A DNA stretch of 32,000 nucleotides. It comes from Synechocystis sp. PCC 6803 substr. PCC-P (GTDB lineage Bacteria > Cyanobacteriota > Cyanobacteriia > Cyanobacteriales > Microcystaceae). Location of the stretch: the NCBI RefSeq assembly GCF_000284455.1, contig NC_017039.1, forward strand, positions 1,650,001-1,682,000. Reading direction: 5' to 3'. Both the position numbers and the translations under genes were made by a program. The stretch's first letter is position 1. Each line of letters starts with the position of its first letter. Shown here piece after piece: positions 2,502 through 25,353 of the stretch. Below the pieces are notes generated by a model, which was not told the DNA's origin, did not search any database, and saw only the letters and a program-made list of their open reading frames with translations.

Positions 2502-3692
2502 ATGTCTGCTAGTCCCCGCCTCCACATTCTCCTCATTGAAGACAACCTGGCTGAAGCTCGCCTCCTGCAGGAAATTCTCAAAGGCTCCCCCAAGGAAAAT
2601 TTTGCATTCAACCATGTGCAAAGGTTGGGGGATGCTTTAACGGTTTTGGCACAGGGGGAAAAGTTTGACATTATTTTGTTGGACTTAACCCTACCGGACA
2701 GCCAAGGTCTAAATTCCTTGCCGAAACTGCAAAGCCATCCTCAAAATTTACCCATCATTGTCCTCACCCATTACCAAGACGAAGAATTGGCCTTAGAAGC
2801 GGTCCGTCAAGGGGCCCAGGACTATTTGGTCAAGCGGGACGTGAGCTTGGATATTCTCCTACGTTCGCTCCATTATGCCATTCAACGCCATTGCCTCGCG
2901 CGGGAATTGGCGGCGGAAAACCAGATCCTGAGTGCCAGCATTAAACGCCAGGAAAGGGAATTGTCCGAGGCGAAGGCAGCCAATAAGCTCAAGTCAGAGT
3001 TTGTTTCCATGCTTTCCCATGATTTCCGCAATCCCCTCAATACCATTCTTTTGTCGGCGGGCTTGTTGGAAGAAAGTGGCGATCGCCTGAGTAAAGGGCA
3101 ACAACATAATTATTTCAACATGATCCGCACCGCTATTAAGGATCTAGATGAATTATTGTCGGAGGTATTACTGCTGGGAAAAACGGAAAATGGCCAGCTC
3201 AGTTGTCAATTTGAATCCCTGGATTTACTTTACTTTTGCCAGGATTTAATGCGTTTGGTGAACAATGCCCAGCGCCAACCAAGGCCGATTCATTTCCACA
3301 CCCAAGGCAATCTGCAACAGGGAGTTTGGGATGCCCATTTATTGCGCCACATTATTTGTAATCTCCTCAGCAATGCGATCAAGTATTCTCCTTCTCCCAC
3401 CCCCATTTTGTTCGATGTAATTGCCGAAGGTAAAACCATGATCTTCCGGGTCACGGACCAGGGCATCGGCATTCCTCCCCAGGCCATGGCGGAATTATTT
3501 AATCCCTTTTTCCGAGCGGACAATGTGGAGGGGGTAACGGGTACTGGTTTAGGACTGGCGATCGTACAGCGTTGTGCCAATATCCATGGGGGAGAAGTGA
3601 CAGTGGAAAGCAAGGAAGGGGAAGGGTCCTGTTTTGCTGTGCGTTTACCGATTCTGGAAATTGCCGACAATGGCGATCGGTTCAGCCCCTGA
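2502..3692 (+). CDS. Receiver-first hybrid histidine kinase (REC - coiled coil - HisKA - HATPase)
   Basis: ATG 2502 (MSASPRLHILLIEDN) is preferred over the track TTG at 2430. The receiver has the phospho-Asp context IILLDLTLPD. Kinase motifs: H-box SMLSHDFRNPL, N-box LLSNAIKYS, G1 DQGIGI, G2 GTGLGLAIV. 396 aa. Confidence 0.85.
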   Translation: MSASPRLHILLIEDNLAEARLLQEILKGSPKENFAFNHVQRLGDALTVLAQGEKFDIILLDLTLPDSQGLNSLPKLQSHPQNLPIIVLTHYQDEELALEAVRQGAQDYLVKRDVSLDILLRSLHYAIQRHCLARELAAENQILSASIKRQERELSEAKAANKLKSEFVSMLSHDFRNPLNTILLSAGLLEESGDRLSKGQQHNYFNMIRTAIKDLDELLSEVLLLGKTENGQLSCQFESLDLLYFCQDLMRLVNNAQRQPRPIHFHTQGNLQQGVWDAHLLRHIICNLLSNAIKYSPSPTPILFDVIAEGKTMIFRVTDQGIGIPPQAMAELFNPFFRADNVEGVTGTGLGLAIVQRCANIHGGEVTVESKEGEGSCFAVRLPILEIADNGDRFSP

Positions 3693-5070: not shown

Positions 5071-7353
5071 ATGAATGCCGTCGCCGCTCTGCCCACCCCC
5101 ACCATTCACACCACCTGTGCCCAAGACATTCACGATATTGAATTGCCCCAGTGGTTAGAGGATTGTTTACAGCAGTGGCAGAGGGAGATAGAACAGGGCC
5201 AGGACGAAACAACGGCGCCCCATTGTCTAATTTGTCGAGCGTTCTGTTTTGCCTACGATCTCCATGCCCAACAGCGGCGGAAATCCGGGGAACCCTACAT
5301 TGCCCATCCGGTGGCGGTGGCGGGGCTACTGCGGGATTTGGGGGGAGATGAGGCAATGATTGCGGCGGGTTTTTTGCATGATGTGGTGGAAGATACGGAC
5401 ATTAGCATTGAACAAATTGAAGCTTTGTTTGGGGAAGAAACGGCCAGTTTGGTGGAAGGGGTAACTAAACTCTCTAAATTTAATTTTTCTAGTACAACAG
5501 AGCATCAAGCAGAAAATTTCCGGCGTATGTTTTTGGCCATGGCCAAGGATATTCGGGTGATTGTGGTCAAGCTAGCCGATCGCCTGCACAATATGCGGAC
5601 CTTAGATGCGTTAAGTCCAGAAAAACAACGGCGCATTGCTAGGGAAACCAAGGATATTTTTGCGCCTTTAGCCAACCGTTTGGGCATTTGGCGCTTTAAG
5701 TGGGAATTGGAAGATCTTTCCTTTAAGTATCTAGAACCCGATTCCTATCGCAAAATTCAGTCCCTGGTAGTAGAAAAAAGAGGTGATCGAGAATCCCGTC
5801 TGGAAACTGTCAAGGATATGTTGCGCTTCCGCCTGCGGGATGAGGGCATTGAACATTTTGAACTCCAAGGGCGCCCCAAACATCTCTACGGCATTTATTA
5901 CAAAATGACCAGCCAGGATAAGGCCTTTGAAGAAATTTATGACATTGCCGCCCTACGCATCATCGTGGAAAGCAAGGGGGAATGTTACCGAGCTCTGTCG
6001 GTGGTTCATGACGTCTTTAAACCCATTCCAGGGCGCTTTAAGGATTACATCGGTTTGCCCAAACCCAACCGTTACCAATCCCTCCACACCACAGTTTTAG
6101 GACTAACTAGCCGACCCCTGGAAATCCAAATTCGCACCGAGGAAATGCACCATGTGGCGGAGTATGGTATTGCCGCCCATTGGAAATACAAGGAAAGTGG
6201 TGGCTCCGAAAATGCAACCCTCACCTCCACCGACGAAAAATTTACTTGGTTGCGGCAACTGCTGGACTGGCAGAGCGACCTCAAGGATGCCCAGGAATAT
6301 GTGGAAAACCTTAAACAAAATCTCTTTGATGATGACGTTTACGTTTTCACCCCCAAGGGCGAGGTGATTTCCCTGGCCCGGGGGGCCACACCGGTGGATT
6401 TTGCTTACCGCATCCACACGGAAGTGGGCCACCATATGAAAGGGGCCCGGGTGAATGGCCAATGGTTGGGGGTGGATACCAGGCTGAAAAATGGCGACAT
6501 TGTGGAAATTGTCACCCAAAAGAATTCCCACCCTAGTTTGGATTGGCTCAATTTTGTTGTTACCCCCAGTGCCCGCCACCGCATCCGTCAATGGTTTAAG
6601 CGTTCCCGCCGGGATGAGAATATTCTCCGGGGTCGAGAATTGTTAGAGAAAGAATTGGGCAAAACCGGTTTGGAAGCCCTGCTGAAATCAGAACCGATGC
6701 AAAAAACGGCAGAGCGATGTAACTACCAAAATGTGGAAGATTTGTTGGCTGGTTTGGGCTACGGCGAAATTACCTCCAATTCTGTGGTCAACCGTCTGCG
6801 GGAAAATAATGTCAACAACGTTAAAAATAGCCAGTCTAGCCAGGAAGTTACCCTAGCAAGTTCCCCCCAAGTCCATCCCCCTACTCCCCCTGCCACTGGC
6901 AAAGATAATTCGCCCATCGCCGGCATTGAGGGTTTGCTGTATCACATTGCTGGTTGTTGTCATCCGTTACCGGGGGAACCCATTATGGGGGTAGTGACCA
7001 GGGGAGCCCGGGGCATTTCCATCCATCGCCAGGGTTGCCATAACCTCGAACAAATGGACGGCGATCGCCTAATTCCGGTGCGCTGGAATCCCAACACCAA
7101 TAATCACCAAACCTATCCGGTGGACATTGTCATTGAAGCCATTGACCGGGTAGGGGTGCTGAAGGATATTCTTTCTCGCCTCAGCGACAACCACATTAAC
7201 GTCCGCAACGCCGATGTTAAAACCCATTTGGGACGACCCGCCATTATTAGTCTCAAAATTGATATTCACGACTATCAACAGCTATTGGGCATCATGGCCA
7301 AAATTAAAAATATGAGTGATGTGATGGACCTGCGTCGGGTAATTTCTGGTTAG
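5071..7353 (+). CDS. spoT: Bifunctional (p)ppGpp synthetase/hydrolase, RelA/SpoT homologue
   Basis: 760 aa. HD hydrolase domain (YIAHPVAVA ... FLHDVVEDT). Synthetase domain (RFKDYIGLPKPNRYQSLHT, EIQIRTEEMHHVAEYGIAAHWKYK). TGS region (VYVFTPKGEVISLARGATPVDFAY). C-terminal ACT-like region (VDIVIEAIDRVGVLKDILSRL). Confidence 0.95.
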   Translation: MNAVAALPTPTIHTTCAQDIHDIELPQWLEDCLQQWQREIEQGQDETTAPHCLICRAFCFAYDLHAQQRRKSGEPYIAHPVAVAGLLRDLGGDEAMIAAGFLHDVVEDTDISIEQIEALFGEETASLVEGVTKLSKFNFSSTTEHQAENFRRMFLAMAKDIRVIVVKLADRLHNMRTLDALSPEKQRRIARETKDIFAPLANRLGIWRFKWELEDLSFKYLEPDSYRKIQSLVVEKRGDRESRLETVKDMLRFRLRDEGIEHFELQGRPKHLYGIYYKMTSQDKAFEEIYDIAALRIIVESKGECYRALSVVHDVFKPIPGRFKDYIGLPKPNRYQSLHTTVLGLTSRPLEIQIRTEEMHHVAEYGIAAHWKYKESGGSENATLTSTDEKFTWLRQLLDWQSDLKDAQEYVENLKQNLFDDDVYVFTPKGEVISLARGATPVDFAYRIHTEVGHHMKGARVNGQWLGVDTRLKNGDIVEIVTQKNSHPSLDWLNFVVTPSARHRIRQWFKRSRRDENILRGRELLEKELGKTGLEALLKSEPMQKTAERCNYQNVEDLLAGLGYGEITSNSVVNRLRENNVNNVKNSQSSQEVTLASSPQVHPPTPPATGKDNSPIAGIEGLLYHIAGCCHPLPGEPIMGVVTRGARGISIHRQGCHNLEQMDGDRLIPVRWNPNTNNHQTYPVDIVIEAIDRVGVLKDILSRLSDNHINVRNADVKTHLGRPAIISLKIDIHDYQQLLGIMAKIKNMSDVMDLRRVISG

Positions 7354-7466
7354 TTTGGAGGCCCAGCCGATCACCATCCCCCACTAGAGGATATCCGCAA
7401 ATCCTAACATTGGGGGATTGAAAACTTAGCCTGGGGAATTATGGGCATTGCGTCTATGGCCTGCCT

Positions 7467-7500
7467 AAAAATAAAAAAATCCCCCGAAATATGGGAGATT
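7467..7500 (-). terminator. Rho-independent terminator of ahcY
   Basis: The minus-strand RNA reads AAUCUCCC-AUAUUUC-GGGGGAUU, an 8-bp stem including one G.U pair with a 7-nt loop (7478-7500). UUUUUAUUUUU follows it (complement of 7467-7477). The hairpin starts 39 nt after the ahcY stop. Confidence 0.7.
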
Positions 7501-7538
7501 GAAGGGGTTTTAGGTAAAAAATGAATCCGTAAACGGTT

Positions 7539-8828
<1,290 letters not shown>

Positions 8829-20892: not shown

Positions 20893-21050
20893 ACCGGACG
20901 TCAAGTCTCGTTGACAAAAATTAACATTATGTTTACTATAAAAAACATAAGGCTATGGAAACCCGACAGAATTCCTTTGCATGAACTATTAAGGGCACGG
21001 GTTCTAGGGGTTTCGGTACCTTCCATTGACATTGAGTTCTCCTAGATATG

Positions 21051-21077
21051 CCCTCGGTGATGCCGGGGTATTTTTTT
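21051..21077 (+). terminator. Intrinsic terminator-like hairpin plus T-run between the convergent KAS gene and hoxH
   Basis: CCCtCGG-tgatg-CCGGGG is a 6 G:C-pair stem with one bulged T (21051-21068). After 'ta' comes TTTTTTT (21071-21077). It lies ~160 nt after the KAS stop and 22 nt from the hoxH stop. Confidence 0.55.
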
Positions 21078-21098: not shown

Positions 21099-22523
21099 TT
21101 AATCCCGCTGGATGGACTTAATTAGTTCCCCCTGAGGGTTAACTAAATCGATCATCAATGGCATTTGTCCCGCTGCATGGGTAGAACAACTAAGGCAGGG
21201 ATCATAACAACGAATACCCGCTTCCACCCGGTTTAAAAACCCTTCTTGCACATCATGATTGCGAATGTAGTGTTTGGCAATTTGGGCCACGGTTTTATTC
21301 ATGGCTAAGTTATTGTTGCCCGTGGCAATGATCAAATTCACTTTCTTAATTAGACCATCTTCATCTATCTTGTAATGGTGGAATAAAGTACCCCGGGGTG
21401 CTTCGCTCACTCCCACCGCTTCGGTACAATTAATTTCTGCCTTAGCTCGACAATTTTTGGACAAAATATCAGGGTCAGCCATTAACAATTCGATGGCTTC
21501 TAAACAGGCAAGAATTTCCACCAAGCGGGCGTAATGATAAAAGAAAGAGGACGTGGCCACACCTCCAGCCCGTTGCCGATATTCTTCTAATTCTTGGTCT
21601 GCTTCCGGGGTGCCAATGTGATGACAAACATTAAGGCGGGCAAGGGGACCAACCCGATAAATGCCATCGGGATAACCCAGAGATTTGTAGTAGGGAAATT
21701 TTAAATAGGACCATTTTTCCACCGATTCACCAATAAAATCAGCGTAATTATCTTCACTGAGATTGTCCGCGACAATATTGCCTTCACTGTCGGTAAACCG
21801 CAGGGAGCCGCCATAATGTTCCCATTCATTATTTTTCCCAACTAAGCCCATAAATAGGGAGGGAAATTTGCCAAATTCTGCCACTTCTGTTTGGAAGCGG
21901 TCCAACATATTTTTAAACAAATTTAAGGCTAAATAAACGGTTTCTTTTGCTTCTGGTAAACGGTCCACAATCCATTGTCTGCCTTCTTCCGACAACGGCG
22001 ATCGGACTCCACCGGGCACTGACCAAGCAGAGTGGATTTTTTTAGCTCCCAAAAGTTCAATTACCGTTTGGCCAAATTGCCGTAACCGAATACCTGCCCT
22101 AGCTAAATCGGGGTCAGCAGCAATTAAACCAAACACATTGCGAGTAGCGGGATCACTGTCCCAACCAAGCAGAAAATCAGGACTGCTGAGATGGAAAAAA
22201 CTTAGGGCGTGGGATTGGGTAATTTGCCCTAAATTCATTAAACGGCGCAGTTTTTCCCCGGCTGGAGGGATTTGCACCGCCAGTAACTTATCCCCGGTTT
22301 TAGCCGCACAGAGCAGATGGCTAACCGGACAAATGCCGCAAATACGGGCGGTAATACCAGCCATTTCCCACATGGGACGACCTTCGCAAAATTTTTCAAA
22401 ACCCCGATACTCCACCACATGGAAACGAACATCATCTACGTTGCCCTGGTCGTTGAGGAAAATGGAGATTTTGGCATGGCCTTCAATCCGGGTAACGGGA
22501 TCGATAACAATGGTTTTAGACAT
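21099..22523 (-). CDS. hoxH: Bidirectional NAD(P)-linked [NiFe] hydrogenase large subunit
   Basis: 474 aa. N-terminal RIEGH and [10 protein letters not shown] Ni-binding motif. C-terminal DPCLSCSTH, followed by a 25-aa extension of the type removed by the maturation protease. Confidence 0.97.
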
Positions 22524-22612
22524 GGGATTGATTATTGTTGATTTAGATATTTTTTGAGCAGTAAATATAGAAAGCCGGATCTTGTAATAAATATTCAGGA
22601 ATTTAAATCAAT

Positions 22613-23062
22613 CTAACTACTGTTAGCAATAACTAATTTTATTCTAGGGAAATTTTGTTGTACGGAATTGAACAGTTTTTTGTCACAGGTATAAAAATCT
22701 ATCTGCATTTTTTCTGCTAAAGCTAAATAATGGACATCATAGGCGGCTGACAATTGAAACTTTTCGGCGATCGCCAAAGCATCCTGGTGTAGTTCTGAGT
22801 TTGAATAAAGTTCAATGCCGAGATTAAAACTTTCTGTAAGAGCAATTTGGGCTTGAGTGTAGTTAATCTGATTGGTCTTGTTTAAACGCCACAAAACATT
22901 AGTCACCTCATAGTTGATTAGATCAGGAGCAACAATTTTAGTATTTGCGTTACACCATTTATTCCACATCTCAAGATAGATAGTTTCTTCATAATACCCA
23001 ACAAGAAGTCGGACAATAAAATTTGAGTCAATACAAATTGTGAAAGAAGTTTGGTTGGTCAT
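22613..23062 (-). CDS. PIN-domain (VapC-like) putative toxin embedded in the hox operon
   Basis: 149 aa with ATG 23062 and TAG 22613-22615. Acidic residues lie in the expected PIN spacing: ICIDSNF, INYEVTNV, AAYDVHYLALA, YTCDKKL. It starts 9 nt after the stop of the small ORF upstream. Confidence 0.8.
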   Translation of the reverse strand: MTNQTSFTICIDSNFIVRLLVGYYEETIYLEMWNKWCNANTKIVAPDLINYEVTNVLWRLNKTNQINYTQAQIALTESFNLGIELYSNSELHQDALAIAEKFQLSAAYDVHYLALAEKMQIDFYTCDKKLFNSVQQNFPRIKLVIANSS

Positions 23063-23071
23063 ACCTAAAAA

Positions 23072-23326
23072 TCATTTTCCAAAACAGGCTTGTAGAACAT
23101 CTTGGGTTCTTTCCTCACGCATTTCTTCGATGATTTCATCTATAGAAAGATCAAAAGGTTTTCCCTGACGAGAAGCATAAATTTCTTGGCGATTGGTTTC
23201 AATTTTCCCCAAAACCTCCTGCCAGTTGCTATTTTTTTCTGCCAAATGAGTTTCCAATAACTTTTGCTCCTCTGGGGAAAGACTTTGAATTATTTGAACC
23301 AAGGATTCTACTAATTGGGTATTCAT
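23072..23326 (-). CDS. Putative antitoxin-like small protein (84 aa) paired with the PIN gene
   Basis: ATG 23326 has a strong AGGAG (complement of 23335-23339) 8 nt upstream; the track start at 23356 is a TTG. The protein is acidic and helical (SLSPEEQKLLETHLAEK ... LSIDEIIEEMREERTQ). The toxin lies immediately downstream. Confidence 0.6.
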   Translation of the reverse strand: MNTQLVESLVQIIQSLSPEEQKLLETHLAEKNSNWQEVLGKIETNRQEIYASRQGKPFDLSIDEIIEEMREERTQDVLQACFGK

Positions 23327-23377
23327 TATTAAATCTCCTGAATAGCTATTTTGCAAACTGTTTAGAAAACTTGAATT

Positions 23378-23926
23378 TTAACCAAATTTGATCATTGCTC
23401 GCCCTTCCATGAGGGGATGTTCCCCATTTAATAATGGTTCTAGCGTTGCTCGAATACGGTGGGCATCGGGAGGACAACCGGGCATAAAAATATCCACCGG
23501 AATAACCTCATGTAGGGGAATAACCTTGTCTAATAGAGGCGGCACAATACCAGGTTCATCGGGCAGTTGAGGCGTCCCATCTCCCAGTTCAATATAGGCT
23601 CGGCGCAGAACCGGATCGCTACCTTTGAGCATATTACGCATACCGGGGACATTGGCGGTTACAGCACAGTCCCCAAAGGAAATTACTACCTTCGTTTTCT
23701 GTCTCAACTCCAAAGCTAACTCTAAATTTTCTTCGTTGGCGATCGCCCCTTCCACTAGGCAAACATCCACATTGTCCGGGTATTCCTTGAGATCAGAACC
23801 AACGGGACTGAAAACCACATCAACTTTTTGAGCGAGATCAATGAGCCATTCGTCCATATCAAGGAAGGACATATGACAGCCGGAACAACCAGCGAGCCAA
23901 ACGGTAGCAAAACGAATTTTAGCCAT
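23378..23926 (-). CDS. hoxY: Bidirectional [NiFe] hydrogenase small subunit
   Basis: 182 aa. Proximal-cluster Cys motif VWLAGCSGCHMS, plus GDCA and PGCPP Cys contexts. Confidence 0.95.
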   Translation of the reverse strand: MAKIRFATVWLAGCSGCHMSFLDMDEWLIDLAQKVDVVFSPVGSDLKEYPDNVDVCLVEGAIANEENLELALELRQKTKVVISFGDCAVTANVPGMRNMLKGSDPVLRRAYIELGDGTPQLPDEPGIVPPLLDKVIPLHEVIPVDIFMPGCPPDAHRIRATLEPLLNGEHPLMEGRAMIKFG

Positions 23927-24714: not shown

Positions 24715-25353
24715 TTAACTAAATTGTTGAAGTAGCCAACGCATGACTTCTCCATGATTCGTTTGGCGTGTTTTTTGCAACGCCTCTTCCAAAACAGCTA
24801 AATTTAATCCAGGTAAAACTAAAGATTCTCGAATTTGGTAGCTCCCTTGGTTTTCCATTTTAAACCCCATGATTTTAGTGGCCTTCACATCCACAATCCA
24901 ATATTCTTTAACGCCTAACTCTTCATAAAGTAGCCGTTTTTTTCCTTGATCATCAGCTAAGGAAGTATTGGCAATTTCGATAACTAAATCTGGGGGAGGA
25001 TAATCATTTAAATTGACAATACCTGTTCCAGAGGGGATAGCCATAGCATTATCCCCCACATGGCAAGAAATATCAGGTTGTACCTCCCAATGACCGGGTT
25101 TACGATAACTACAGGTATCATTTCCGTTGAGCGGAATTTTCTTAAAAATTGCATACAGACTAATAGCGTTACTAATTAGGTAATGGTCTCTTGAATGATC
25201 GTTACCAACGGGAGACATTTCAATTCTCAACTGGTTTTGATAGTAGTAGAACTTTGCTTTGTCATAATCGGGATTTTCAGTGGCTTGGATAAATTCTTCC
25301 CAGGTGGCCTCAGTCCAAGTGTCACTTTTGATGGGAGCAGTTAAAACATTCAT
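24715..25353 (-). CDS. Uma2-family (DUF820) PD-(D/E)xK putative endonuclease embedded between hoxF and hoxU
   Basis: 212 aa with ATG 25353 and TAA 24715-24717. Uma2 hallmarks: QPDISCHVG, PPPDLVIEIANTSLADDQGKKRLLYEELGVKEYWIVDV, and LPGLNL near the C-terminus. The gaps are 40 nt to the hoxF stop and 26 nt to the hoxU start. Confidence 0.8.
   Translation of the reverse strand: MNVLTAPIKSDTWTEATWEEFIQATENPDYDKAKFYYYQNQLRIEMSPVGNDHSRDHYLISNAISLYAIFKKIPLNGNDTCSYRKPGHWEVQPDISCHVGDNAMAIPSGTGIVNLNDYPPPDLVIEIANTSLADDQGKKRLLYEELGVKEYWIVDVKATKIMGFKMENQGSYQIRESLVLPGLNLAVLEEALQKTRQTNHGEVMRWLLQQFS

Follow-up and report, generated by a model that had tools for sequence, protein, structure and literature searches.

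We analyzed a 32,000-nucleotide (nt) stretch of the chromosome of Synechocystis sp. PCC 6803 substr. PCC-P (NC_017039.1, 1,650,001–1,682,000), hereafter the window; all positions are window-relative. Two small genes lie on the minus strand between hoxY and hoxH, which encode the small and the large hydrogenase subunit. The pair is very probably a horizontally acquired, VapBC-like type II toxin-antitoxin (TA) module that resides in the hox operon as a selfish or defence-type passenger, and the imperfect inverted repeat around it is then a coincidence. The two genes are already known as the ssl2420/sll1225 TA module of PCC 6803. Gene order and protein families of the region match the published hoxEFUYH operon of this organism, and the presence of the small RNA PsrR1 close behind hoxH agrees with this identity. 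The immediate surroundings of the pair are composed as follows.

23926–23378, minus strand: hoxY, hydrogenase small subunit (PF01058 at 2e-30), upstream neighbour of the pair
23327–23377, minus strand: 51-nt spacer from the hoxY stop codon to the antitoxin ATG, holding an AGGAG motif and the upstream repeat arm
23326–23072, minus strand: ssl2420, putative antitoxin gene, 84 amino acids (aa), isoelectric point 4.61, predicted all-helical, no curated family
23062–22613, minus strand: sll1225, PIN toxin gene, 149 aa, VapC-like (PF01850)
22524–22612, minus strand: 89-nt spacer from the toxin stop codon to the hoxH ATG, with the downstream repeat arm and an imperfect copy of the beginning of hoxH
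22523–21099, minus strand: hoxH, hydrogenase large subunit (PF00374 at 3e-29), downstream neighbour of the pair

The AGGAG motif (23339–23335) is located 8 nt ahead of the antitoxin ATG. The antitoxin gene ends with TGA, and the PIN reading frame begins 9 nt further on in the same frame, with TGA and two codons in between. The toxin ATG is preceded at a distance of 2 nt by a poor AGG only and has no good ribosome-binding site. The G+C content amounts to 16/60 in 22621–22680 within the cassette versus 32/60 in 22321–22380 within hoxH. For whole genes it is 0.344 (PIN) and 0.373 (antitoxin), compared with 0.477 for hoxY, 0.456 for hoxH and 0.456–0.495 for the hox genes of the window taken together. 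A first-pass annotation of the window had given the same reading frames, the same gaps of 51, 9 and 89 nt and the same AGGAG position; all of these were recomputed and are correct. Its hand-counted G+C values, its HIP1 (highly iterated palindrome 1) site and its two 15-mers, an inverted match at 14 of 15 positions, were confirmed as well.

The 149-aa protein scores 30.0 bits on PF01850 (cut-off 23.6) over residues 9–131. Four acidic residues, D12, E52, D109 and D127, are invariant across 21 homologues of 27–89% identity, and the catalytic site is therefore intact. The nearest solved sequence is the Pyrobaculum PIN protein PAE0151 (PDB-entry 2fe1, E-value 1e-6). An AlphaFold2 model built with the 21 homologues reached a mean predicted local distance difference test score (pLDDT) of 89.8 and a predicted template-modelling score of 0.84. 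A Foldseek search with this model returned PAE0151 as the best hit (E-value 3e-7, TM-score 0.72–0.81), followed by PAE2754; further matches were VapC chains from the VapBC complexes of M. tuberculosis, Klebsiella and Shigella. The second reading frame had been described before as a PIN protein with acidic residues in VapC-like spacing, and with the Pfam threshold passed, the quartet invariant and the predicted fold matching PIN/VapC this description holds.

The 84-aa antitoxin matches nothing in Pfam, NCBIfam or PADLOC (no PADLOC model was matched by the toxin either), and its family profile found no relative in the PDB. It is predicted to fold into four helices, at low to moderate confidence. 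A search of 1.84 billion representative sequences with the antitoxin profile yielded 281 clusters at E ≤ 1e-3 and 66 at E ≤ 1e-10. The antitoxin is thus a member of a family that has no curated entry and comprises a few hundred clusters, a small addition to the known record. The 55 family members that were scanned contain no DNA-binding Pfam domain (AbrB, ribbon-helix-helix (RHH), Phd/YefM or helix-turn-helix (HTH)), although a fold too diverged for these models is conceivable. A protein recorded for an unclassified Synechocystis contains the 84-aa sequence at 100% identity.

Homologues of the antitoxin with 52–54% identity are encoded directly 5' of PIN homologues in Chondrocystis NIES-4102 (L084) and Tolypothrix (L086). 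On a metagenome contig (L092) an antitoxin homologue overlaps the downstream PIN gene by 4 nt. The surroundings of these pairs differ. In Chondrocystis (2738–3426) the pair is wedged between a DUF1156 gene and HEPN_Swt1/DUF499 genes on the same strand, an arrangement that resembles a multi-gene system. The Tolypothrix pair follows a patatin gene, and the pair on the metagenome contig follows an AAA_11/AAA_12 helicase gene. The partnership of the PIN gene with a small acidic upstream protein, which the first-pass annotation had proposed, is kept as a module in all three. Judged by these sequences, antitoxin and PIN toxin are a conserved two-gene module with homologous pairs in at least three unrelated gene contexts. 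A database protein that joins antitoxin and toxin (P0001, 237 aa) was considered as a natural fusion and rejected as a gene-call artefact in which TGA is read as tryptophan; the DNA (L091) has a TGA stop.

To place the pair within the hox operons of cyanobacteria we fetched 80 hoxY loci, in 71 of which hoxH lies downstream of hoxY. The spacer between the two genes measures at most 100 nt in 29 of these loci, 100–200 nt in 5 and at least 200 nt in 37. Homologues of the pair were found between hoxY and hoxH in a single one, that of Synechocystis salina LEGE 00031 (L001). Since 1 of 71 junctions carries the pair and others are short or hold other genes, the pair is, on this comparison, a horizontally acquired insertion into a variable slot and not an ancestral hox component. 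That it is foreign to the hydrogenase operon had been proposed from its low G+C content, and its rarity at the other hoxY-hoxH junctions agrees with this. In all Synechocystis copies the cassette has a G+C content of 0.34–0.36 compared with 0.475–0.49 in the flanks, a deficit of 12–14 points. Homologous cassettes in other hosts show 0.37–0.43 versus 0.41–0.49. The deficit fits a donor of lower G+C content and little amelioration.

The same eight-gene order is present on three metagenome contigs (L081–L083) and in strain FACHB-383 (L088). Further copies of the pair were observed, as protein hits only, in CACIAM 05, LEGE 06099, PCC 7339, PCC 6714 and B12. All of these carriers belong to Synechocystis or its near surroundings. 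Within the sequences compared, the pair is restricted to the Synechocystis 6803/6714/salina clade. In the two nearest outgroups of Synechocystis (L002 and L003) the slot holds a gene for a CBS-CP12 protein. A Uma2 gene, the other insert of the operon, is present after hoxF already in L003 and in Snowella L010. From these occupancies it follows that the Uma2 insertion is the older one and that the TA pair was gained within Synechocystis proper only. None of the nearest outgroups showed an empty site with one copy of the repeat; they hold other genes or have short spacers that cannot be aligned with those of the window. The outgroups compared were L002 and L003 (CBS-CP12), L012 (66-nt gap) and L004 (227-nt gap), and the insertion boundaries are not mappable from them.

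Across cyanobacteria, unrelated genes have repeatedly landed in the spacer between hoxY and hoxH. CBS-CP12 fusions occupy it on the same strand in L002, L003, L043 and L052, and a plain CP12 gene does so in L063. Other same-strand occupants encode PRK-like kinases (L049, L071), a YbjN protein (L018), an SNase-like nuclease (L023) and a methyltransferase (L029). Several of the occupants are Calvin-cycle regulators. Three Snowella loci (L010, 6556–6792; L011, 6569–6793; L015, 6569–6793) and one of Merismopediaceae (L005, 2969–3193) share a conserved reading frame of 74–78 aa in a 278-nt spacer; it has no Pfam match and appears hydrophobic by eye. In a metagenome-assembled genome of Xenococcus (L051) the spacer extends to 1.8 kb and contains, on the opposite strand, a PIN_8/PIN_12 protein and a 155-aa partner (7205–7903 and 6686–7153). 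Here a different PIN gene has entered the same junction independently.

The first-pass annotation had regarded the inverted repeat around the two reading frames as the footprint of a mobile cassette. Our repeat search extended the two 15-mers to arms of 23 nt with 78% complementarity.

22586–22608: downstream arm of the inverted repeat, imperfect
23328–23350: upstream arm of the inverted repeat, imperfect, overlapping the antitoxin ribosome-binding site

A cassette bounded by such terminal repeats could have been transposed or inserted site-specifically. In line with this, the arms form the longest inverted pair in 22450–23450 and bracket both reading frames. When the two spacers are aligned with gaps, the best alignment matches at 20 of 22 positions with one indel. 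Of 5000 dinucleotide-preserving shuffles, 12 reached this score; among real segment pairs of the same spacing none of 841 did, and among AT-rich real pairs 1 of 102. The repeat is therefore unusual in the window by the kind of shuffling test that the first-pass annotation had proposed, but values at shuffle level were obtained for the sequences around the same cassette in L081, L001 and L088 and around the homologous cassettes in L084 and L086. S. salina lacks a 38-nt stretch of the 89-nt spacer in which the downstream arm lies, and this arm is also missing in FACHB-383. The 51-nt spacer with the upstream arm is approximately 90% conserved in S. salina; this arm coincides with the AGGAG-ATG region of the antitoxin gene and is conserved for reasons of its own. 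In L081, whose cassette has 89% protein identity, the arms differ at three positions. Between the arms there are only the two reading frames and no transposase or integrase gene, no target-site duplication adjoining the arms was seen on reading the sequence, and within the window the motif has no occurrence besides the arms. With five related cassettes lacking the repeat and one arm missing in S. salina, the footprint interpretation was abandoned, and we consider a mobile cassette of this kind extremely improbable.

The inverted repeat is real and mildly unusual in this one sequence; it was selected after the fact, and related copies do not share it. In our reading it is a lineage-specific coincidence between the antitoxin ribosome-binding site and a downstream spacer that was remodelled in the 6803 lineage, and not a transposition scar. 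A long-range RNA stem between the arms that hides the antitoxin ribosome-binding site was also considered and rejected, as the duplex energies only marginally beat those of shuffles (21 of 500 for the window, 20–33 of 500 for L081 and L083, nothing for L001 and L088). The minimum-energy fold of a 951-nt segment pairs the upstream arm locally and not with the downstream arm. Each of the three arm differences in L081 is compatible with G-U pairing, but covariation cannot be claimed from three transitions.

In the same spacer as the downstream arm, the segment 22524–22550, directly ahead of the hoxH ATG, matches the first 27 nt of hoxH (22497–22523) at 19 of 27 positions on the minus strand. It is the only tandem 27-nt pair of at least 70% identity in the window. 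The copy is common to L081 (18/27) and L083 (17/27), whereas 67 other loci including S. salina show a mean of 7.1 and a maximum of 11 matches. A local duplication or recombination event at the downstream end of the cassette seems to have left it as a scar.

A comparison with L081 resulted in a synonymous divergence (dS) of 0.46–0.48 for antitoxin and toxin and of 0.32–0.38 for the flanking hox genes. The ratio of non-synonymous to synonymous divergence (dN/dS) against L081 is 0.17 for the antitoxin and 0.12 for the toxin; values for the pair span 0.12–0.21, compared with 0.04–0.05 for the hox genes against L081. Because dN/dS is low and dS is near that of the flanks, the pair is inherited with the operon and held by purifying selection, which is looser than that on the hox genes. 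Against S. salina and FACHB-383 the divergence is uneven along the cassette, and two features of the region are relevant here.

22800–23200, minus strand: hyper-divergent block, comprising the antitoxin 3' half and the toxin 5' two thirds
22767–22774: HIP1 octamer GCGATCGC in the toxin gene

The end of hoxY, the spacer and the 5' half of the antitoxin gene have approximately 82–90% identity to these two relatives. From 23200 to 22800 the identity drops to 47–64%, compared with 82–95% for the rest of the operon, and in the 3' third of the toxin gene it returns to 82–84% (approximately 96% over the best stretch). This mosaic suggests either a recombined divergent allele in the middle of the cassette or fast evolution, possibly co-evolution, of the two proteins. 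The hyper-divergent block may represent the toxin-antitoxin interface. The HIP1 octamer had been taken as a sign of long residence. It is also present in L081 and not in L001, L088, L084, L086 or L092. The S. salina allele is one base off and the distant homologues lack the site, which makes it a weak indicator.

Previous studies described the hox operon as octacistronic with a single transcription start 168 bp upstream of hoxE (PMC3933540, PMC4264147). Kopfmann, Roesch and Hess (2016, Toxins 8:228, PMC4963859) catalogued the pair among the type II systems of this strain, with sll1225 as PIN toxin, ssl2420 as 'hypothetical' antitoxin and the antitoxin gene preceding the toxin gene. The same work maps no transcription start to the pair itself and assigns it to the hox unit, the nearest start being 4435 nt upstream; the arrangement recurs in PCC 6714, and a role in operon stabilization was proposed (PMC4963859). 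The first-pass annotation had treated the pair as apparently undescribed, which does not hold, as both the module and the addiction or stabilization hypothesis were published in 2016. In the literature on the hox operon and toxin-antitoxin systems in Synechocystis we found only this paper. What the present analysis contributes beyond it is that the module is confined to one clade, that its antitoxin family is conserved in other gene contexts, that its divergence is mosaic, that both genes are under purifying selection and that the flanking repeat is not conserved.

We observed no terminator-like site in 22300–23600. The same interval contains two promoter-like sites compared with 4.0 expected from shuffles, which is no excess. 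When the promoter ahead of hoxE is replaced, the levels of all eight transcripts rise, and so does that of the HoxH protein (Ortega-Ramos et al. 2014, PMC3933540). Because a promoter swap at hoxE changes all eight transcripts and HoxH, transcription must read through the pair into hoxH. The earlier suggestion that the hoxH message is made by reading through a toxin gene is thus supported by the swap data, by the lack of a terminator and of a promoter excess, and by the lack of a mapped start of the pair. Judged by the published transcript maps and the swap experiments, the two genes are transcribed solely within the hox message. Ortega-Ramos et al. (2014) also reported that strong constitutive or temperature-switched expression of all eight genes leaves growth like that of the wild type. 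When the whole operon including the pair was replaced by a resistance marker, no hox transcripts were formed and growth was again like wild type (Ortega-Ramos et al. 2014). In a study from 2024, sll1225 is one of the genes whose expression rises transiently, along with that of the hox genes, in dark microoxia.

Among known systems the pair most resembles VapBC, as represented by M. tuberculosis VapBC15, Shigella/Salmonella VapBC and Rickettsia VapBC2. Shared features are a PIN toxin of approximately 130–150 aa with four acidic residues, a small antitoxin gene directly upstream on the same strand and structural matches of the toxin to VapC chains. Unlike these systems, the pair has an antitoxin without a recognizable AbrB, RHH, Phd or HTH domain, it has no promoter or operator of its own, and the nearest solved relatives of its toxin are the archaeal proteins PAE0151 and PAE2754 instead of a bacterial VapC. 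The ssl2420/sll1225 pair of Kopfmann et al. (2016, PMC4963859) is the same locus without any essential difference. The CBS-CP12 genes of the slot are alike in being non-hydrogenase genes on the same strand between hox genes and in being co-expressed with them, as was described for the hox clusters of Nostoc PCC 7120 and Synechococcus PCC 7002 (Hackenberg et al. 2018, PMC6142219). They differ in that they encode redox or metabolic regulators plausibly tied to hydrogenase physiology, whereas the pair is a module of selfish type.

Based on the likeness to VapBC we propose the following mode of action. With AGGAG at ideal spacing, the antitoxin would be translated in excess over the toxin. It would then bind the toxin and block its ribonuclease (RNase) activity, and the toxin would act only when the antitoxin is depleted. 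The module would persist in the operon as a passive selfish or defence-type passenger and not as a component of the hydrogenase. We rank this role highest because the same module adjoins DUF1156, HEPN/DUF499, patatin and helicase genes in other hosts.

Several observations weigh against a functional VapBC-like passenger flanked by a coincidental repeat. The antitoxin has no recognizable DNA-binding domain and the pair has no promoter, so a canonical autoregulated TA circuit is absent. A structure prediction for toxin and antitoxin as a joined chain, with a block alignment, gave a pLDDT of only 47–80 for the antitoxin part and thus no in-silico support for binding. Some related copies look decayed: the antitoxin of strain B12 is annotated with 46 aa, and the toxin of PCC 6714 is annotated with 118 aa from Met32 and hence without D12. 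The toxicity assays of Kopfmann et al. covered four other pairs and not ssl2420/sll1225 (PMC4963859). Finally, the inverted repeat does beat shuffles in the strain of the window.

Three other roles have to be compared with that of a passive passenger. According to the addiction hypothesis of Kopfmann et al. (2016), a stable toxin that outlives its labile antitoxin penalizes the loss of hox and keeps a dispensable operon together. It was proposed for exactly this locus (PMC4963859), and it would account for the position of the pair between two hydrogenase subunit genes as well as for its retention across the Synechocystis clade with a dS similar to that of the flanks; the intact PIN catalytic site is in line with it, too. 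The whole-operon replacement mutant grows like the wild type, however, so loss is not lethal in the laboratory, and this healthy mutant argues against a strong addiction effect. Moreover, 29 of the 71 other cyanobacterial loci keep hoxY and hoxH adjacent without such a module, and FACHB-383 has lost the neighbouring Uma2 insert while its operon is intact. We therefore regard stabilization by addiction as unlikely. Abortive infection appears a little less likely still. Here the pair would be a phage-defence module that uses the hox transcript for low-level expression. The DUF1156, HEPN_Swt1/DUF499, patatin and AAA_11/AAA_12 helicase genes beside the homologous pairs are typical neighbours in defence islands, Uma2 as the other insert of the operon matches PDC-S17 and PDC-S03, and the hyper-divergent central block fits diversifying pressure. 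On the other hand, neither protein of the pair matches any PADLOC model, and a weak, microoxia-induced promoter would be an odd choice for a defence gene.

The first-pass annotation had raised the idea of a redox-timed growth control, in which the shut-off of hox transcription frees the toxin and causes a transient arrest of translation or growth. The lack of a separate promoter, the transient induction of sll1225 on entry into dark microoxia and the purifying selection on both genes are compatible with this idea. It is difficult to reconcile with the growth data, as neither over-expression of all eight genes nor deletion of the operon under standard conditions produced a growth phenotype. The same module also resides in unrelated, non-redox contexts of other cyanobacteria, and we consider such a control improbable. 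In a more specific version, judged more improbable by a shade, the end of the microoxia-induced hox burst would leave the PIN RNase briefly unopposed and brake translation on the return to oxic light. If this were true, the TA module would be a timer of redox history and not an addiction element, and the divergence of the central block would mark the allelic diversification of the timer.

As a passenger, the pair is one more TA module riding inside a host operon, as was pointed out in 2016. It matters mainly to those who engineer the Synechocystis hydrogenase, since genes for a probable RNase toxin, for its antitoxin and for a nuclease-like Uma2 protein are part of the operon that they delete or over-express. 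The TA pair and Uma2 could confound phenotypes of the operon such as the peroxide tolerance attributed to it (PMC3933540, PMC4264147).

The upstream part of the operon contains the Uma2 gene between two hox genes.

27019–25394, minus strand: hoxF
25353–24715, minus strand: sll1222, Uma2/DUF820 nuclease-like gene between hoxF and hoxU (PF05685 at 3e-30)
24688–23972, minus strand: hoxU

With a G+C content of 0.388, the Uma2/DUF820 gene (24715–25353) is a second foreign insert of the hox operon. It matches the PADLOC candidate defence families PDC-S17 and PDC-S03 and is mostly deleted in FACHB-383. Its dS against L081 is 0.056 compared with 0.33 for the flanking hox genes. As this value is far below that of the flanks, a recent exchange of the segment between lineages is indicated.

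An Rfam scan identified no RNA family within the cassette; a match to SNORD11 at an E-value of 0.13 is noise. Just downstream of hoxH, on the opposite strand (21001–21073, plus), the scan located the photosynthesis regulatory small RNA PsrR1 with 63.6 bits (gathering score 42).

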